DNA from: a virus
Reading direction: 5' to 3' (one strand)
DNA length: 21,378 nt
Virus genome (UHGV): UHGV-0079970
Positions 1,442 through 7,206 of this stretch are shown here, piece after piece. Position 1 is the stretch's first letter; the number at the start of each line of letters is the position of its first letter. The position numbers were made by a program, and so were the translations under genes. Below the pieces are notes generated by a model. The model was not told the origin of the DNA and did no database searches. It saw only the letters and a list, made by a program, of their open reading frames with translations.

Positions 1442-1444
1442 GTC

Positions 1445-1472
1445 CATAAGAAAGCCCCTCCGGAGAGGGGCT
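1445..1472 (-). terminator. Second hairpin, possible minus-strand terminator (weak T tail)
   Basis: 8-bp stem AGCCCCTC (1453-1460) / GAGGGGCT (1465-1472), 4-nt loop; on the minus strand followed by TTTCTTAT. Together with the 1413-1441 hairpin forms a back-to-back pair. Confidence 0.3.
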
Positions 1473-1708
1473 GGAGAGTGGCGCTATGTGCCATTGCATG
1501 GTGCCGGGTGCCTCCCGGTGAATTCAGTACCAGCACCTGAATCCGCGATTATCCCATATACCTACTCGCTGATTGCCCCTCCGCACAGGGGGATTCACCA
1601 TGCCAGTTTCTTTTAACAAACTCCCCGCAAACCAGACAACAGTCAACCGCCTAAATTGTGAGACATTTAAAAAAAAGGCCCACAAAAGCGAGCCAGGGAA
1701 AATAAGTG

Positions 1709-1798: not shown

Positions 1799-1875
1799 TG
1801 GACCGCCATCGGGGACTTGAACCCCGCGCAACCAGCTTCGAAGGCTGGCGCTCTTTCCTGATGAGCTAATGGCGG
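1799..1875 (-). tRNA. tRNA-Arg (anticodon TCG)
   Basis: Minus-strand 77 nt, CCGCCATTAGCTCATCAGGAAAGAGCGCCAGCCTTCGAAGCTGGTTGCGCGGGGTTCAAGTCCCCGATGGCGGTCCA: cloverleaf with C1-G72 acceptor pair, anticodon loop CTTCGAA, T loop TTCAAGT, encoded CCA. Confidence 0.75.
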
Positions 1876-1882
1876 TATGTGA

Positions 1883-1958
1883 TGGTGGCCCTTGCTGGAT
1901 TTGAACCAGCGACCTGGCGATTATGAGTCGCTCGCTCTCACCACTGAGCTAAAGGGCC
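1883..1958 (-). tRNA. tRNA with CAT anticodon, tRNA-Ile2 (lysidine) type / Met
   Basis: Minus-strand 76 nt, GGCCCTTTAGCTCAGTGGTGAGAGCGAGCGACTCATAATCGCCAGGTCGCTGGTTCAAATCCAGCAAGGGCCACCA; anticodon loop CTCATAA; closely resembles E. coli tRNA-Ile2 as I recall it. Confidence 0.8.
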
Positions 1959-2007
1959 GGGAGCAGAATAATAATGGTGCGTAATTAATTCTGCAATCTC
2001 ATCCGTT

Positions 2008-3057
2008 TCAAACGATTAAATCCTGAACTTCCCTGACTGTCTGCTCAAAACGTCCGGTCTCCAGTTCAACGCCAATCGCACGACGCCCGAGCGCCAGTGC
2101 AGCTTTTACCGTTGAACCTGAGCCCATAAAAAAATCTGCAACCAGGTCTCCCGGACGACTGCTTGCGCTGATTATCTGCTGCAGCATTTCTGCCGGTTTT
2201 TCGCACGGATGTTTCCCGGGATAGAACTGCACCGGTTTATGTGTCCACACATCCGTGTACGGCACCTGCGCCGTCACACCAAAATACCGCCGCAGATGCT
2301 TATATTCACTATGCAGCTCCACATACTGCCGGTTCAGTGACGTATACGTATCCACCAGCTGGTGGTGGGGCTTTTCCAGTTCACCGCGCTGATGTTTCTC
2401 TTCTGCCACCCGGGCAAACAGCGACTGTAATTTCAGATAATCGCTTTCGTTCGGTAGCTGCCACTGACTGGCACTGAACCAGTGCGACACCATGTTTTTC
2501 TTTCCTGTGGCATCTGCAATCTGTTTTGCCGTTATCCCCAGGGCAGCTCGCGCATCACGAAAGTAAGAAATCAGCGGGGCCATCACATGCTGTTTCAGTG
2601 CACTGCCCTTCGCCGCATACCCGGCATCTTTCGGACGATACGGCCCCTGATAATGTTCCGCGAACAGAATGCGCTCTGTGGCGGGGAAATACGCCCGCAG
2701 GCTTTCCTTGTTGCATCCGTTCCAGCGTCCGGACGGCTTCGCCCAGATAATATGGTTCAGCACACTGAAGCGTTCACGCATCATGATTTCGATATCAGAT
2801 GCCAGGCGATGACCACAGAACAGGTAAAGACTTCCGGCAGGTTTCAGCACCCGCCAGAACTGCGCCAGACACTGGTCCAGCCACTTCAGGTAATCATCGT
2901 CGCCCTTCCACTGGTTATCCCAGCCCTCGGGTTTCACTTTAAAGTATGGCGGGTCTGTGACTATAAGATCGACAGAGTTTTCCGGTAAGGTCTGGATAAA
3001 TTCCAGGCAATCAGCGTTGATTAACTCACAACTGGATATTTTTACAGTATTAGCCAT
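2008..3057 (-). CDS. N6-adenine (or N4-cytosine) DNA methyltransferase, beta-class
   Basis: 349-aa ORF; motif IV LIVTDPPYF near the N-terminus and AdoMet motif FFMGSGST near the C-terminus (order typical of beta-class amino-MTases). Confidence 0.8.
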   Translation of the reverse strand: MANTVKISSCELINADCLEFIQTLPENSVDLIVTDPPYFKVKPEGWDNQWKGDDDYLKWLDQCLAQFWRVLKPAGSLYLFCGHRLASDIEIMMRERFSVLNHIIWAKPSGRWNGCNKESLRAYFPATERILFAEHYQGPYRPKDAGYAAKGSALKQHVMAPLISYFRDARAALGITAKQIADATGKKNMVSHWFSASQWQLPNESDYLKLQSLFARVAEEKHQRGELEKPHHQLVDTYTSLNRQYVELHSEYKHLRRYFGVTAQVPYTDVWTHKPVQFYPGKHPCEKPAEMLQQIISASSRPGDLVADFFMGSGSTVKAALALGRRAIGVELETGRFEQTVREVQDLIV

Positions 3058-3193
3058 AGATCAATAAGCACTTCTCTGATAGGCTCATACCGCTTTTGCG
3101 CAAAGCAGATGGGCCTGAGGTTTGCTTGTGACCCCAACGCATGAGCAGATGGCTGGCAGGTGCCGCTAACACCCACCAGCCGCCCATTACCAC

Positions 3194-3221
3194 AAATAAA
3201 AAAGCCTTCACTGAGGAAGGC
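3194..3221 (-). terminator. Rho-independent terminator (minus strand) at the 3' end of the small wHTH gene
   Basis: Minus-strand 6-bp stem GCCTTC / GAAGGC (plus coords 3216-3221 / 3204-3209), 6-nt loop, then TTTTTTATTT; the stop codon of the small ORF lies inside the stem. Confidence 0.5.
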
Positions 3222-3405
3222 GTCTGTAACAACCGAACTGATAATCTGCCAGACCCGCCATAACAAGCTGGGTCAGTATTAACTGGCAACGTTCGCGTGA
3301 AAGGTAAGTATTCTGCGCAATTTCCCCGACGGTCGCCGGTTCGGTGACGCTTAATTCATTAAACACCACTCTGGCAGTTTCGGTCATATCCTGCTGTTTT
3401 AGCAT
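3208..3405 (-). CDS. Small winged-helix-like DNA-binding protein (65 aa), hypothetical regulator
   Basis: ATG at 3405 preceded by AAGGGA; product MLKQQDMTETARVVFNELSVTEPATVGEIAQNTYLSRERCQLILTQLVMAGLADYQ... has a helix-turn-helix-like pattern (VGEIAQNTYLSRERCQLILTQL). The ORF track extends it to 3642, which I consider unlikely. Transcribed divergently from the DUF262 operon. Confidence 0.4.
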   Translation of the reverse strand: MLKQQDMTETARVVFNELSVTEPATVGEIAQNTYLSRERCQLILTQLVMAGLADYQFGCYRRLPQ

Positions 3406-3528
3406 GTCTTTTTCCCTTTTCTGGTTAACGTGACATACCAATAACTCTTGTCTGAAAAGCCAGCAAGCTGAAAGACCGGTATTCGCAACCACCAGCACGT
3501 TTAACGTACTGCGCCGTTTTTCGGACAC

Positions 3529-3548
3529 AAAAAACCGCCTGGCGGCGG
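3529..3548 (-). terminator. Possible minus-strand terminator upstream of the small wHTH gene
   Basis: 5-bp GC stem (plus 3535-3539 CCGCC / 3544-3548 GGCGG), 4-nt loop, followed on the minus strand by T6 (plus 3529-3534 A6). Short stem, so weak. Confidence 0.3.
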
Positions 3549-3597
3549 GTTTAAGCTGTGTGGCGTAGTAACCACTCTTAACACGATATAATATTTT

Positions 3598-3626
3598 TTG
3601 CGTACGCGTTATAGTTTTCTTACAAT
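3598..3626 (+). promoter_or_regulatory. Candidate sigma70 promoter for the DUF262-HEPN operon
   Basis: -35 TTGCGT (3598-3603), 17-bp spacer, -10 TACAAT (3621-3626), in an AT-rich intergenic region; SD AAGGAA (3646-3651) 7 nt before the ATG at 3659. A separate perfect TATAAT at 3587-3592 lacks a -35. Confidence 0.35.
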
Positions 3627-3658
3627 CTATTTCCAACTCCAATTAAAGGAACAGTGAT

Positions 3659-4816
3659 ATGACCACACTCAAAGAACTCAAAGAAGAGCTTGCTCAGATT
3701 CAAGATGAAAACGCGAAAAATAGAAAAAAAGCTGAAATTGCAGCCTTGGTCACTTCTGCCGACAACGAGATTAGGCTTGCTCAGAGAAATATTGGATACA
3801 ACGTACGTGAATGGACCGTTGAATTAATTGTACAAAAGTATGGCAATAATCTTGAAACTGACAAAAACGAACTTTTTATTCCTGATTATCAACGCGATTA
3901 CAAATGGGATATCAAAACAGCCTCTCGATTCATCGAAAGTATATTATTAGATTTTCCAATCCCGTACCTCTACATCTCCGACGTATTTAATGAAGATCCT
4001 GAGTTGGATGGTCGTGTAGAAATTATTGACGGTTCACAAAGGATTCGCTCAATTTACTACTTTTGGAACAATCAGTTTGAATTGAAAGACTTAAAAGAAC
4101 TCAAAAGTTTAGAGGGCTTCAAATTTTCAGATCTTTTGGCTAGCCGCCAGAGGCGATTTTTAAGGGCATCACTAAGATTTATTGAATTGAAAGGTGATGT
4201 TGAGGAGCAACATAGAAGAGATTTATTCGAAAGAATAAATTCAGGTGTTAAGAGACTGGAAGCGATGGAGGTTAGACATGGTTCAGATGCGGCCACTTCA
4301 ATTTTCTATAGGGATGTTGTGACTCCTTGCTCAACAAATCCACTTTTCGCTAGTCTAGCTCCATTATCAGACCGGAAACGTTCGAATGGCGATCATCGTG
4401 AGTTAGTTTTGAGATTTTTTGCATACTTAAATGATTTAGAAAATTATAAGGGTTATGTCGCTCCTTTTATTGACAATTATCTTAATGTTCAGGCCGAAAG
4501 GGTCACACAACAAGATGTAGACAAATTTAAACATGATTTTGAAAGCATGCTTGCTTTTGTAGATGCTCATTTCCCTATGGGGTTTAAAAAGACACCAACA
4601 AGCAAAACCACCCCCCGTGCTAGATACGAAGCCATAGCAGTGGGAACTGCTCTTGCCTTAAAAGCCAATCCACATCTACAGGCTCCGGTTATTCCTGTAG
4701 GAGACTGGCTGTTTGGGGAGGAATTTGAAACCATAGTTACTGCTGATAGTGCCAACAACACCAGCCAACTCAAAAACAGAATATTTTATGTCAAAGATAA
4801 ATTATTAGGAATGTAA
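3659..4816 (+). CDS. DUF262 / ParB-like (GmrSD N-terminal type) domain protein, 385 aa; no recognisable DUF1524/HNH nuclease domain
   Basis: Motifs DYQRDYKW and IIDGSQRIRS (DGQQR-type DUF262 signature), later LFERINSGVKRLEAME; N-terminal ~60-aa coiled-coil-like extension. Strong RBS. AT-rich (~37-41% GC in hand-counted 100-nt samples). Confidence 0.75.
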   Translation: MTTLKELKEELAQIQDENAKNRKKAEIAALVTSADNEIRLAQRNIGYNVREWTVELIVQKYGNNLETDKNELFIPDYQRDYKWDIKTASRFIESILLDFPIPYLYISDVFNEDPELDGRVEIIDGSQRIRSIYYFWNNQFELKDLKELKSLEGFKFSDLLASRQRRFLRASLRFIELKGDVEEQHRRDLFERINSGVKRLEAMEVRHGSDAATSIFYRDVVTPCSTNPLFASLAPLSDRKRSNGDHRELVLRFFAYLNDLENYKGYVAPFIDNYLNVQAERVTQQDVDKFKHDFESMLAFVDAHFPMGFKKTPTSKTTPRARYEAIAVGTALALKANPHLQAPVIPVGDWLFGEEFETIVTADSANNTSQLKNRIFYVKDKLLGM

Positions 4817-4818
4817 CT

Positions 4819-5508
4819 ATGAGTTTGATTGATTTAAGAGATGAATACGAAGAAAGAGCAAGAGATATTATGGAATTGCTTTCTCTTGCGTCATCTTTAG
4901 AGGCTCAGACTCAGCAGTTAGATCAGCAAACGCATAAAGATGAAATAGAATCAAATACCCTTAGGGTTAACATTTTAAAATCATCCGTGCACATGATGCT
5001 GTACAATCAGGTTGAAAACACTGCCAGAGGATGCATTGAGTCAATTTATGACCATTTGCAAGATAATGAAGTAAATTACGCATCACTCAGGGAGAAATTC
5101 CAAGTAAATATCTTGCACCGTATCATTTCAGATAATGAATCGGGAAAATCTCTTTATCAAAAAATTGGTTCCGATATATCTAAAAGGATCATTTCAGCCT
5201 CATTAAACATACGTAAAGAATTCAATGGTAATGTTTGCAAGTCTGTATTGCACAAAATAACACAAGCTTACGGAATAACTGTTGCAAACTCACCAGAGTG
5301 TAGAAATGGTGTTGACTTAGATTTACTTAAAGATATCAGAAATGAGCTGGCACATGGAAGTACCAGCTTTTCTAAAAAAGGTCAAATAGACCCTTTAGAA
5401 GAAGTCAAATCGAGGTCAGAAAGAATTGATCTATATTTGCGTTTATTAATCAACTCAACAGAAAATTATATTACCTCTAACGGGTATTTATCCCCTCAAC
5501 ATGTCTGA
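4819..5508 (+). CDS. HEPN-motif protein (predicted RNase-type effector), 229 aa
   Basis: ATG 2 nt after the upstream stop (translational coupling) with AGGAA SD; canonical R-[N]-x3-H motif RNELAH (5338-5355) in the C-terminal third; rest mostly helical by composition. Confidence 0.6.
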   Translation: MSLIDLRDEYEERARDIMELLSLASSLEAQTQQLDQQTHKDEIESNTLRVNILKSSVHMMLYNQVENTARGCIESIYDHLQDNEVNYASLREKFQVNILHRIISDNESGKSLYQKIGSDISKRIISASLNIRKEFNGNVCKSVLHKITQAYGITVANSPECRNGVDLDLLKDIRNELAHGSTSFSKKGQIDPLEEVKSRSERIDLYLRLLINSTENYITSNGYLSPQHV

Positions 5509-6517
5509 TAAATGTTTCCCCTATTATCTGACCAATTATAGGGGGAACAGCATTTCCAATCATTGTCCCCAATTTTTGGAATGAAAAAGGCGTCTCCTTG
5601 TCAAGGAATTTATAATCCATTGGAAAGGATTGCAAAATCGCAGCTTCACGCAAAGTTATGGCGCGATTTTGCTCAGGATGGCCAAATCGTCCATTTCCAT
5701 ATCCATAACACTGGGTAGTTATCGTAGGGCTAGTATCGTCCCAAACCATCCGTCCATAAACGCTTTTATAGGTAGCACCTGAATTCTTTTTATGACAGTC
5801 TGCTCTAATTTCTTCAGGCCAGTCATCCCACGTACCACCAGGTAAAGAATGCATGATTCGTTTAAGATTGATATCCATCAATTTAGGCGAACGATGCAAG
5901 GGATCGCTTTCCAGCTTCTCACCTGCCCCTACTTTTGGCAACCTACCAATAGCATCCTTAACAGTAACTTTACGGCTAACTTTTTTTTGATCAAGGCTGA
6001 TCGGCCCCAATTGGGAACCAATTAGAATTAATCTACGTCTATTTTGAGGTAAGCCATACTCAGAACATCTTACAACGTCGTACCACAAATGATATCCAAG
6101 AGTCTTTAATGCACTAACAAACCCTTCAAAAACCTTATGGTTTCTAAGTTGAGGAACATTCTCCATCGTCACAAGCTCTGGCATGACATCACTTACAAGC
6201 CTTTGAAACTCATATAACAAACGCCACTTTGTATCGTCTTTACGGCTATTTGGATTACGATACTTGGAAAACGGTTGGCAAGGAGCACATCCAGCAAGCA
6301 ATCTAATATTTCCTTCCTTGAACATAGCAGACACATCGCAGGATTGCAGTTCTGTAACTGACTGATTAATGAACTGCGTTAAAGGATTATTGCTCTCAAT
6401 AGCAAAACGGCAGGATTCATCAATATCAATACCATGAGAAACCTCAATCCCGGCTTTTTTTAGCCCAAAAGTTAAGCCCCCCGCACCACAAAAAATGTCT
6501 ACTGCCTGAATGTTCAC
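5477..6517 (-). CDS. C5-cytosine DNA methyltransferase (Dcm/type II M family), 346 aa
   Basis: Motif I DIFCGAGGLTFG, catalytic PCQ in GCAPCQPFS, ENV, QNRRRL, GNAV. Start is GTG at 6517 with GGAG 6 nt upstream. 3' end overlaps the HEPN gene tail-to-tail by 32 bp. Confidence 0.9.
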   Translation of the reverse strand: MNIQAVDIFCGAGGLTFGLKKAGIEVSHGIDIDESCRFAIESNNPLTQFINQSVTELQSCDVSAMFKEGNIRLLAGCAPCQPFSKYRNPNSRKDDTKWRLLYEFQRLVSDVMPELVTMENVPQLRNHKVFEGFVSALKTLGYHLWYDVVRCSEYGLPQNRRRLILIGSQLGPISLDQKKVSRKVTVKDAIGRLPKVGAGEKLESDPLHRSPKLMDINLKRIMHSLPGGTWDDWPEEIRADCHKKNSGATYKSVYGRMVWDDTSPTITTQCYGYGNGRFGHPEQNRAITLREAAILQSFPMDYKFLDKETPFSFQKLGTMIGNAVPPIIGQIIGETFIRHVEGINTR

Positions 6518-6580
6518 AAGATTCTCCGTTACTTTATCCTGGTATTATATACACATAAAAGTTGGGAAAGTAGAACGATT

Positions 6581-6949
6581 TTACATAGAACTTAAGTCAT
6601 TGTAGTAAATGAAAAATGACAAGCAGCCATCAATAAACCCCATTGCTGTTTGCATCTCTTTCCGTATTGTTCCATCTGAACATTTCCGTTTTTTAGCAAT
6701 AGCGCGTAATGAGATACCAATAACAAAGTGAGCAATGATCAACTCATACTCTTCGGGTTTATACTTTCGCAACCGAGCCACACAACCGTCTATCATGATA
6801 CCTTCGTCATCATCACACTGGAGACGTGACTTTTTACCGTGTGGTAAAAGCCCCTTGAAGCCTGCTGCTATCGGCTGCCAGTCCACACCACTGTTATCTG
6901 CTGCAGCCCAGGCCCCCCAACGATCTAAAACTTCGTACATATCACGCAT
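6581..6949 (-). CDS. Q: Late-gene antiterminator Q-like protein (QuuD/Q-type), 122 aa
   Basis: N-terminus MRDMYEVLDRWGAWAA... and Cys cluster (C-x-D-D-D...GC...CSDG) match what I recall of lambdoid Q/QuuD proteins; lies between replication and late-region genes; start overlaps the upstream stop (TGATG). Confidence 0.65.
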   Translation of the reverse strand: MRDMYEVLDRWGAWAAADNSGVDWQPIAAGFKGLLPHGKKSRLQCDDDEGIMIDGCVARLRKYKPEEYELIIAHFVIGISLRAIAKKRKCSDGTIRKEMQTAMGFIDGCLSFFIYYNDLSSM

Positions 6950-7206
6950 CAGCGCAGTACCTCCTGCACCAGTTTTTCAAACTTACCAACTCTGGTTTCC
7001 AGCTCTGCCACACAATCCACCAGCTCATCCACTGCTTTTTGTGCACGGTGTTTTGCCTGCATCAGTTCCCTGAGCGCTGGCACCATATCCCGACGAATGG
7101 CATCTTTTGTTACACCTGTTTTTTCCAGTTGTTCCGCCTGCCGCAACATTTCCTGTGCCTGTTTACGTAATTGCTCAGGGGTAAAAGTCATTGTCTGGTT
7201 GTTCAA
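6949..7206 (-). CDS. Hypothetical small coiled-coil protein (nin-region position), 85 aa
   Basis: TTG start at 7206 with GGAG 8 nt upstream, overlapping the DnaB-like stop; translationally coupled to Q. Alternative ATG at 7191 has no SD. Confidence 0.45.
   Translation of the reverse strand: MNNQTMTFTPEQLRKQAQEMLRQAEQLEKTGVTKDAIRRDMVPALRELMQAKHRAQKAVDELVDCVAELETRVGKFEKLVQEVLR

Follow-up and report, generated by a model that had tools for sequence, protein, structure and literature searches.

What does a small gene lying between a low-GC defence cassette and a methyltransferase gene belong to, and what does it control? We addressed this question in the virus genome UHGV-0079970, whose 21,378 nucleotides (nt) make up the window analysed here. 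The gene lies on the minus strand at 3208-3405 and encodes a protein of 65 amino acids (aa). The initial annotation had described it as a helix-turn-helix (HTH)-like candidate regulator of a divergent DUF262 operon and had left open which unit it was part of. We find that it belongs to the phage backbone, specifically to a DNA methyltransferase (MTase) module, and that its occurrence does not depend on the DUF262/HEPN/Dcm cassette. The parts of the module are a control element, a winged-helix gene, a hairpin/terminator placed on the stop codon of that gene, a leader of ~130 nt abutting the next start codon, and the gene of an M.EcoGII-type MTase. By alignment with related phages, it appears to stand at the head of the late operon, directly after a pR'-tR' unit.

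The small gene runs from an ATG at 3405-3403 to a TGA at 3210-3208, and its product, MLKQQDMTETARVVFNELSVTEPATVGEIAQNTYLSRERCQLILTQLVMAGLADYQFGCYRRLPQ, matches the phrog_331 profile over residues 1-64 (E = 1.4e-37, 128.7 bits). The open reading frame (ORF) is the 3' part of a 144-aa ORF with a TTG start (3208-3642). The N-terminal extension of the longer frame is without conservation, and all homologues start at the methionine of MLKQQDM. A Shine-Dalgarno (SD)-like AGGGA, read from the sequence at 3413-3417 on the minus strand, precedes the ATG by 7 nt and is kept as AGG(G/T)A-N-ATG across homologous loci. The 334 database homologues, most of which have 63-65 aa, come from Escherichia, Shigella, Salmonella, Klebsiella, Citrobacter and Buttiauxella. 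Scanning one genome for each species brought in Kluyvera, Enterobacter, Proteus, Providencia, Mangrovibacter, Mixta and Plesiomonas, with identity down to 41%. Length and start codon are conserved in Escherichia, Salmonella, Klebsiella, Proteus, Providencia and Plesiomonas. Between genera, synonymous sites are saturated while the nonsynonymous rate (dN) is 0.09-0.37, and the ratio of nonsynonymous to synonymous rates (dN/dS) has a median of 0.09 and a maximum of 0.20 in the pairs where it is measurable.

The small ORF is thus a real gene, as the initial annotation had proposed. The notion that it is untranslated, the region being a leader between two late-operon terminators, could draw on its shortness, on the failure of any Pfam family to pass threshold, and on annotations that call it hypothetical or a pseudogene. 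Such a notion is scarcely credible given a dN/dS of ~0.09 with saturated synonymous sites, the conservation of frame, start codon and SD, a confident fold prediction, and an ORF that is intact in 74/75 viral contigs. Thousands of genomes already carry an annotation of the family, and many of the database entries with 94-106 aa are over-long calls of this 65-aa gene. In some close relatives (for example, at 3149-3379 of locus L010), the small ORF as annotated has an internal stop or is extended at its N-terminus.

The product folds as a winged helix. An AlphaFold2 (AF2) model with a pLDDT of 91 has three helices followed by a beta-hairpin wing and superposes on known winged HTH (wHTH) proteins, which bears out the earlier HTH-like assignment. 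The homologues, of 63-67 aa, consist of the winged-helix domain alone. The NCBI annotation pipeline (PGAP) names them "hypothetical" or "TrmB family transcriptional regulator." Against Pfam TrmB (PF01978), the small protein scored 18.0 bits (E = 0.0026), below the gathering threshold of 25.6 bits, and 10 of 21 diverse family members matched PF01978 at E <= 0.01, with a best E of 3.7e-4. It lacks the TrmB architecture, in which a wHTH is joined to coiled-coil and sugar-binding effector domains. More generally, it differs from MarR, ArsR, TrmB and Lrs14 proteins in having no dimerisation or ligand domains, and its Pfam and NCBIfam scores are below the curated cut-offs: a Pfam scan gave no family above threshold (TrmB, MarR and DprA_WH all missed theirs), and an NCBIfam search gave no match, with the Lrs14 model at 12.4 bits versus a cut-off of 90. 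Single-sequence and profile searches of the Protein Data Bank sequences returned nothing significant. We found no paper on the small gene in the literature, and those on P840, M.EcoGII and the small RNA (sRNA) are silent on it.

We then determined which unit the gene belongs to from its neighbours. The minus strand has a lambdoid order of DnaC-like, DnaB, Q (PF06530, 6581-6949), the small ORF, an N6_N4 MTase and tRNAs Ile/Arg/Arg, and a low-GC block carrying Dcm (minus), HEPN (plus) and DUF262 (plus) stands between Q and the small ORF. The GC content of 3201-3600 is 0.47, between that of the cassette (0.35-0.42) and that of the backbone (0.50-0.56); the initial annotation had judged the gene closer to the backbone in GC. 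Of 34 species-level loci, 32 have an MTase homologue after the small ORF, the exceptions being a contig end and a truncated ORF, and the distance from the small-ORF stop to the MTase ATG in these loci is 134-153 nt. Seventy-four of 75 IMG/VR contigs with the MTase and enough upstream sequence carry an intact small ORF 149-151 nt away; this MTase-centred scan covered only relatives of at least 95% identity, the distant ones coming from the annotated phage collection. The upstream side is variable. At least three Pfam families are represented among the Q proteins, whose genes lie at variable distances from the small gene, and the sequence between Q and the small gene holds GIY-YIG in phiP27, a lipoprotein moron in a Salmonella prophage, a different two-gene cassette in Stx2a_1447, and nothing in Stx2_14040 and Klebsiella prophages. 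Because the MTase follows at a fixed spacing while the family and distance of Q vary, we conclude that the small gene travels with the MTase. This linkage extends to proteins of 41% identity and is seen in lambdoid and telomere phages alike.

These distributions bear directly on the proposal that the small protein is a transcriptional regulator of the divergent DUF262/HEPN (+Dcm) defence cassette. Small HTH regulators beside defence operons are common, and the geometry is real, the gene lying on the other strand, 253 nt away from the start of DUF262. The back-to-back partner of the cassette promoter, however, is a putative Q-dependent late promoter with its terminator and not the control region of the small gene, and this terminator and late-promoter leader separate the gene from the cassette promoter. 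The cassette occurs in 107 of 5426 complete Escherichia coli genomes and the small-ORF region in 2186; 34 genomes have an 86.7%-identical cassette that comes after Q and directly precedes the holin gene, with no small ORF or MTase. DUF262 is found in 2/75 IMG/VR contigs with the small ORF and the MTase, and the phiP27, Salmonella and Klebsiella loci carry other morons or none in that place. PADLOC gave no match to the small protein. The distributions of gene and cassette are independent, which largely refutes regulation of the DUF262 operon, and we regard it as very improbable; the assignment to the neighbouring defence cassette was tempting but wrong.

The gene beside which the small gene is fixed, at 2008-3057 on the minus strand, encodes a 349-aa N6-adenine DNA methyltransferase orthologous to M.EcoGII (Pfam N6_N4_Mtase, E = 3e-44). 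It is 94% identical to M.EcoGII (328/350 aligned positions; sequence taken from the machine-read text of supplementary file 5 of PMC11551740) and 95% identical to the MTase of phage 1720a-02, a close relative of M.EcoGII (PMC5778455). As a beta-class enzyme of ~349 aa, it falls within the M.EcoGII family, and non-specific activity is predicted. M.EcoGII methylates adenine in any context, is silent in the lysogen and has deleterious effects under constitutive expression (PMC5778455), hence the need for tight control. The enzyme is in wide use; the literature that we found gives no account of its natural control. In E. coli BEC1-S17-ESBL-09 (locus L002, 4948-5998), the MTase gene is frameshifted and annotated as a pseudogene.

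The spacer between the two genes encodes a structured leader RNA of the MTase gene (3058-3187, minus strand; ~130 nt), with five helices and 40 pairs. P1 occupies 3187-3141, P3 pairs 3115-3109 with 3088-3082, and P4 is a hairpin at 3106-3092. A long-range helix pairs 3134-3124 with 3069-3058 and ends 1 nt before the MTase ATG; its 3' strand reads GCUUAUUGAUCU and the AUG comes next. No SD is visible upstream of this AUG.

Several lines of evidence support the structure. In an alignment of the spacer from 36 loci, conservation was far above that of synonymous sites and compensatory changes were evident. The 40 pairs were drawn on a MAFFT alignment of 25 sequences, in which 92.4% of the cells are paired, compared with 29-44% when the partners are slid. 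Two-sided change is seen in 13 pairs, a number reached in 0/500 shuffles. RNAalifold independently recovered the long-range helix, and the minimum-free-energy fold of the leader (-60.7 kcal/mol, z = -3.5) has the same architecture as the drawn structure. In a model-fitted alignment of 46 distinct sequences, which is biased towards the structure, 93.5% of the cells are paired and 29/40 pairs show two-sided change. We assign the structure to the gene strand because of its G-U pairs. A covariance model finds a single copy in the window (3046-3194, minus) and matches before every MTase homologue tested, bar that of Aeromonas phiO18P, a range that takes in lambdoid, N15-like, Yersinia, Hafnia, Vibrio and Aeromonas phages. 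An Rfam search of 7.2 kb gave no match to the leader at E <= 1, a search with 211 nt around it gave chance-level matches only (12-15 bits), and a literature search with the leader sequence found no paper; the leader is a candidate new structured-RNA family.

Other readings of the spacer were tried and rejected. A frame beginning ATG GGC GGC reaches the MTase start in the window and is interrupted or frame-shifted in other genera, so the spacer is not taken to encode a peptide. An alternative pairing of GGUCAC with GUGAGCC, considered as a switch, is hinted at by a single clade and finds no support in loci L009 and L025. Covariation between the sequence type of the wing and that of the leader followed no consistent pattern.

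Both hairpins flanking the small gene have the form of intrinsic terminators, a G+C-rich stem-loop with a U-tract on the transcribed strand, in agreement with the initial annotation. The upstream one (3525-3548, minus) is tR'-like: its 5-bp all-GC stem, CCGCC-GCCA-GGCGG with its loop, spans 3548-3535 and is followed by a U-tract at 3534-3525, TTTTTTGTGT (T6GTGT). The downstream one (3194-3221, minus) has a 6-bp stem, GCCTTC-CTCAGT-GAAGGC (3221-3204), holds the TGA of the small gene inside its loop, and is followed by TTTTTTATTT (T6ATTT) at 3203-3194. The single-sequence z-scores of their folds were modest (-2.0 upstream and -1.6 downstream). The region 1800-7200 contained 8 terminator-like sites versus 5.0 +/- 2.0 in shuffles, which is not above chance. 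With the site count at chance level and modest z-scores, the significance of the hairpins rests on their conservation. The upstream terminator is present in 34/36 homologous loci, with diverse stem sequences, at ~83-96 nt or ~114-129 nt from the small-gene ATG. The stop-overlapping hairpin qualifies as a terminator in 16/36 loci; it shows compensatory changes in Enterobacteriaceae, has a strong U-tract in E. coli-type loci only, and is absent in Proteus and Providencia.

The upstream hairpin is probably not part of the small gene. A consensus promoter scan made no report in 3406-3660, so the promoter assignments given here were made by cross-phage alignment alone. In phages with a PF06530-type Q, the upstream terminator is preceded by CGCAAAAA, a hexamer with invariant A2 and T6, and then GTTAAGAGTGGTYAC; A2 and T6 of the hexamer, 2 nt before the TAAGAG motif, are kept in 8/8 such sequences. 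The corresponding late-promoter-like unit of the window (pR' type, 3549-3611, minus) comprises a poor -35, TAACGC (3611-3606), the spacer CGCAAAAA, a -10, TATCGT (3588-3583), and the initially transcribed sequence GTTAAGAGTGGTTAC (3582-3568). Unit and terminator align with their annotated counterparts in N15 and phiKO2, where the -10 lies ~3 nt farther upstream of the TAAG motif, and in E. coli EcPF16 they directly precede the holin gene with no small ORF. For these two reasons, we read the upstream hairpin as the probable tR'-type terminator of a ~50-nt leader from a Q-dependent late promoter, the 3549-3611 unit being the putative promoter. The hairpin also aligns with a terminator that the SfV record places after Q; in this record, orf47 (the small gene) and orf48 (the MTase) are listed as unknown. 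The Sp5 StxS/pR' was tried as a guide for placing pR' and rejected, its leader of 258 nt being unrelated.

The arrangement resembles lambda pR'-tR' (6S RNA) and StxS of Stx phages in that the hairpin would be the intrinsic terminator of a short Q-dependent late-promoter leader, and morons are known to insert around such a terminator (PMC7547250; PMC4104026). It differs in the predicted leader length, ~50 nt as opposed to 194 nt in lambda and 258 nt in Sp5, in sequence, in the lack of an Rfam match, and in a Q of the PF06530 type. In phages that carry the cassette, only TAACGC is left as the -35 of the putative late promoter.

Between this terminator and its ATG, the small gene has what looks like a control element of its own. 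The promoter/operator-like sequence at 3431-3466 (minus) consists of TTGCTG (3466-3461), 17 nt, TATTGG (3443-3438) and then TATGTCA. Its generalized form, CTTGCTG-17 nt-TAYNTG-TRTGTCA, is common to 30/30 aligned diverse loci. The element recurs upstream of the N15 gp50-gp51 operon, with a more canonical -10 (TACAGT), and upstream of ORF60 in Yersinia phage P840. Its presence beside the winged-helix gene even where the late promoter is downstream of the gene argues for a promoter or operator belonging to the winged-helix gene itself. In many Enterobacteriaceae, CTTGCTG can pair with codons 4-6 (CAGCAAG) of the small gene; Proteus, Providencia and Plesiomonas lack this pairing, and the candidate was dropped.

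The arrangement, conserved from E. coli to Plesiomonas, occurs in an altered order in N15-like phages. N15, phiKO2, YDC107_1 and Yersinia P840 have, in this order, a gp51-like protein, the late promoter, a terminator, the RNA motif, the MTase, a second terminator and the holin. The gp51-like proteins of N15, phiKO2 and P840 have 75-77 aa, and phiKO2 gp51 is annotated as a wHTH. Although identity to the small protein is ~25%, gp51 aligns with the family profile at an hhalign probability of 87% (E = 4e-6), and the gp51-like protein is the top hmmsearch hit in each locus; gp51 of N15 and phiKO2 and ORF60 of P840 are therefore probable distant homologues of the small protein. They resemble it in size, in the upstream DNA element and in the adjacent RNA-MTase unit, and differ in preceding the late promoter and terminator, co-transcribed with gp50, whereas the small gene lies after them. 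Lambdoid and N15-type orders alike place a terminator between the winged-helix gene and the RNA-MTase unit. The annotated start of gene 52 in N15 (2235 in our locus L128) seems to be ~78 codons too far downstream; the MTase match starts at 2001 and there adjoins the RNA motif directly, as in phiKO2.

In a second variant, found in Aeromonas PhAER-1 and Vibrio ST2-1pr, an ORF of the Com zinc-ribbon type comes after the RNA motif and before the MTase. These ORFs scored 34.5 bits (PhAER-1) and 25.3 bits (ST2-1pr) against PF10122, for which the cut-off is 22.9. They are unannotated or merged in the records (~1329-1517 of the PhAER-1 locus and 1358-1468 of the ST2-1pr locus), and in ST2-1pr the last helix of the RNA motif covers the com-like start codon. 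In Aeromonas phiO18P, the RNA and the winged-helix gene are both absent, and the MTase lies inside the lysis cassette. We did not find the module described in the literature, notably the leader RNA and the alternation of its winged-helix and Com-type partners.

On balance, we favour the reading in which the small protein is a dedicated controller of MTase expression. The locus suggests how a phage may restrain M.EcoGII, by two terminators, a leader RNA in which the start codon is hidden, and a small winged-helix protein dedicated to this task. In the lysogen, the two terminators and the closed leader would keep the toxic MTase silent; upon induction, Q-modified RNA polymerase would read through both terminators, and the winged-helix protein would then set MTase expression by binding nucleic acid. 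Its likeliest target would be the leader RNA, where it might open or lock the helix that hides the start codon, comparable to Mu Com on mom; alternatively, it might bind the conserved DNA element in the promoter of the small gene itself. The regulation itself, the bound target and the choice between activation and repression are our reading of the arrangement. A post-transcriptional role is plausible because a Com-type gene occupies the same RNA-MTase module elsewhere. Even so, within the dedicated-controller reading, direct action on the leader RNA is a tentative proposition. For phrog_331, which is present in ~40% of complete E. coli genomes and in many Stx2 prophages, between Q and stx, the module provides a functional lead.

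A number of observations weigh against dedicated control of the MTase. PHROGs places phrog_331 in the category "unknown function." The small protein is slightly acidic, and its few basic residues are R37 and R39, where helix 3 starts, and R61 and R62 in the wing. In lambdoid phages, the -10 of the element before the small gene has G as its final base. PhiR5_1 has kept the small gene and lacks the MTase, and M.EcoGII alone is active in vitro (PMC5778455). No winged-helix ORF is detectable upstream in PhAER-1, VHML and VP58.5; since PhAER-1 and VHML have the RNA motif, the leader can work without the small protein. In telomere phages, the late transcript does not include the winged-helix gene, and a simple model of a co-transcribed activator does not fit all architectures.

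Some of these observations would suit a small protein that acts on the MTase protein, either as an antitoxin-like inhibitor or as a DNA-targeting cofactor for non-specific adenine methylation. A small gene before that of a toxic enzyme resembles the layout of type II toxin-antitoxin systems, the linkage is very tight, and an apparent promoter of its own, with a terminator before the MTase, would permit expression of the small gene in the lysogen. The acidic net charge of the small protein points the same way, as do its best Foldseek matches, which are winged-helix dimerisation domains of SAM-dependent methyltransferases. M.EcoGII, however, is fully active alone (PMC5778455), a 150-nt structured spacer with a terminator is atypical of antitoxin-toxin pairs, and the Com-type occupants of the module have a precedent in translational control. 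We consider an action on the enzyme unlikely.

We give similarly little weight to the possibility that the small protein is a phage transcription factor or accessory protein unrelated to the MTase, with a role in late timing, lysogeny or anti-host functions and an adjacency that merely reflects block inheritance. PhiR5_1 would be accommodated by such a role, as would the N15-like homologue, which is co-transcribed with gp50 upstream of the late promoter, and the conserved element at the gene's own promoter suggests an autoregulation typical of generic repressors. Yet block inheritance sits poorly with a linkage that persists to 41% identity in lambdoid and telomere phages while everything upstream is shuffled, with a spacer of fixed length, and with phiO18P, in which an MTase without the RNA is also without the winged-helix gene.

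Returning to dedicated control of the MTase, the closest parallel is the Com-Mom system of phage Mu. In both, a gene for a ~60-aa protein lies just upstream of a late, host-toxic DNA adenine-modification gene, mRNA structure hides the start of the enzyme, and the enzyme is silent in lysogens. The layout expected of a functional analogue of Mu Com, with a gene upstream of a late toxic gene whose start is sequestered in mRNA structure, is thus present here. In Mu-like prophages, com-like genes precede the non-specific adenine MTases Hin1523, Hia5 and Nma1821 (PMC3299994). By analogy, the small protein might be an RNA-binding translation activator like Com. It is not a Com protein, since it has no zinc ribbon. 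Com is a four-cysteine zinc ribbon, whereas the small protein is a winged helix without a match to PF10122, and among its cysteines C40 alone is nearly invariant, C59 being lost in the Proteus/Providencia group. The small gene also lies 150 nt upstream of its partner, which com overlaps, and the ~130-nt leader has five helices in place of the single inhibitory stem of Mu. The module is a plausible case of non-homologous replacement of Mu Com, and as a whole would represent control of a known type, in which a small protein and mRNA structure gate a toxic phage DNA-modification enzyme.

The controller (C) proteins of restriction-modification systems offer a second comparison. They too are small DNA-binding proteins (a property predicted for ours) encoded upstream of a potentially lethal modification or restriction gene and dedicated to its timing, and autoregulation through a conserved site at the own promoter is probable in our case. 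C proteins are Xre-type five-helix HTH dimers whose binding sites are C-boxes and whose main target of control is the endonuclease. The small protein has a winged-helix fold, its module contains no endonuclease, and structured RNA and terminators intervene. Without an Xre fold and an endonuclease gene, the small protein is not a C protein.

Taken further, these parallels would make the leader a new class of riboregulator guarding non-specific adenine MTase genes in lambdoid, N15-like and Vibrio/Aeromonas phages, with the small protein as an RNA-binding switch that has replaced Com non-homologously. We put this forward as a speculative possibility. In a variant of this idea, the leader may sense a small molecule such as S-adenosylmethionine (SAM) or S-adenosylhomocysteine (SAH), and the winged-helix protein may act only at its own promoter.

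The cassette that separates Q from the module spans 3590-6580 and lies directly after Q in both loci inspected. It comprises a DUF262/GmrSD_N protein (3659-4816, plus; PADLOC NsnA, E = 6e-46, and PD-T4-2_A, E = 4e-27), a HEPN_MAE_28990 protein (4819-5508, plus) and a Dcm C5-MTase (5477-6517, minus). The DUF262 operon has a candidate promoter, read from the sequence at 3598-3626 (plus) as TTGCGT, 17 nt and TACAAT, which is conserved in the 86.7%-identical cassette copy of EcPF16 and falls below the threshold of the promoter scan. The -35 of this promoter, TTGCGT (3598-3611 region), overlaps the CGCAAAAA spacer, and the same TTGCGT stands before the different cassette of phage Stx2a_1447. Similarity of the Q protein to that of Stx2_14040 stops at GFIDGCLS, and the last 11 codons (FFIYYNDLSSM) and the sequence downstream of them differ (6581-6640, minus). 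The left end of the cassette has apparently replaced the 3' end of Q, and the same junction is found in EcPF16.

Beyond the MTase, the tRNA at 1883-1958 (minus) was called Met (CAT) by ARAGORN and is annotated as tRNA-Ile (ileZ) in phiP27, Stx2a_1447 and a RefSeq E. coli record. Just downstream of the three tRNA genes, 1442-1632 (minus) gave a full-length Rfam match to the sRNA STnc100 (RF02076; 138 bits, E = 3e-31), and no long ORF surrounds this match in 1-1700.

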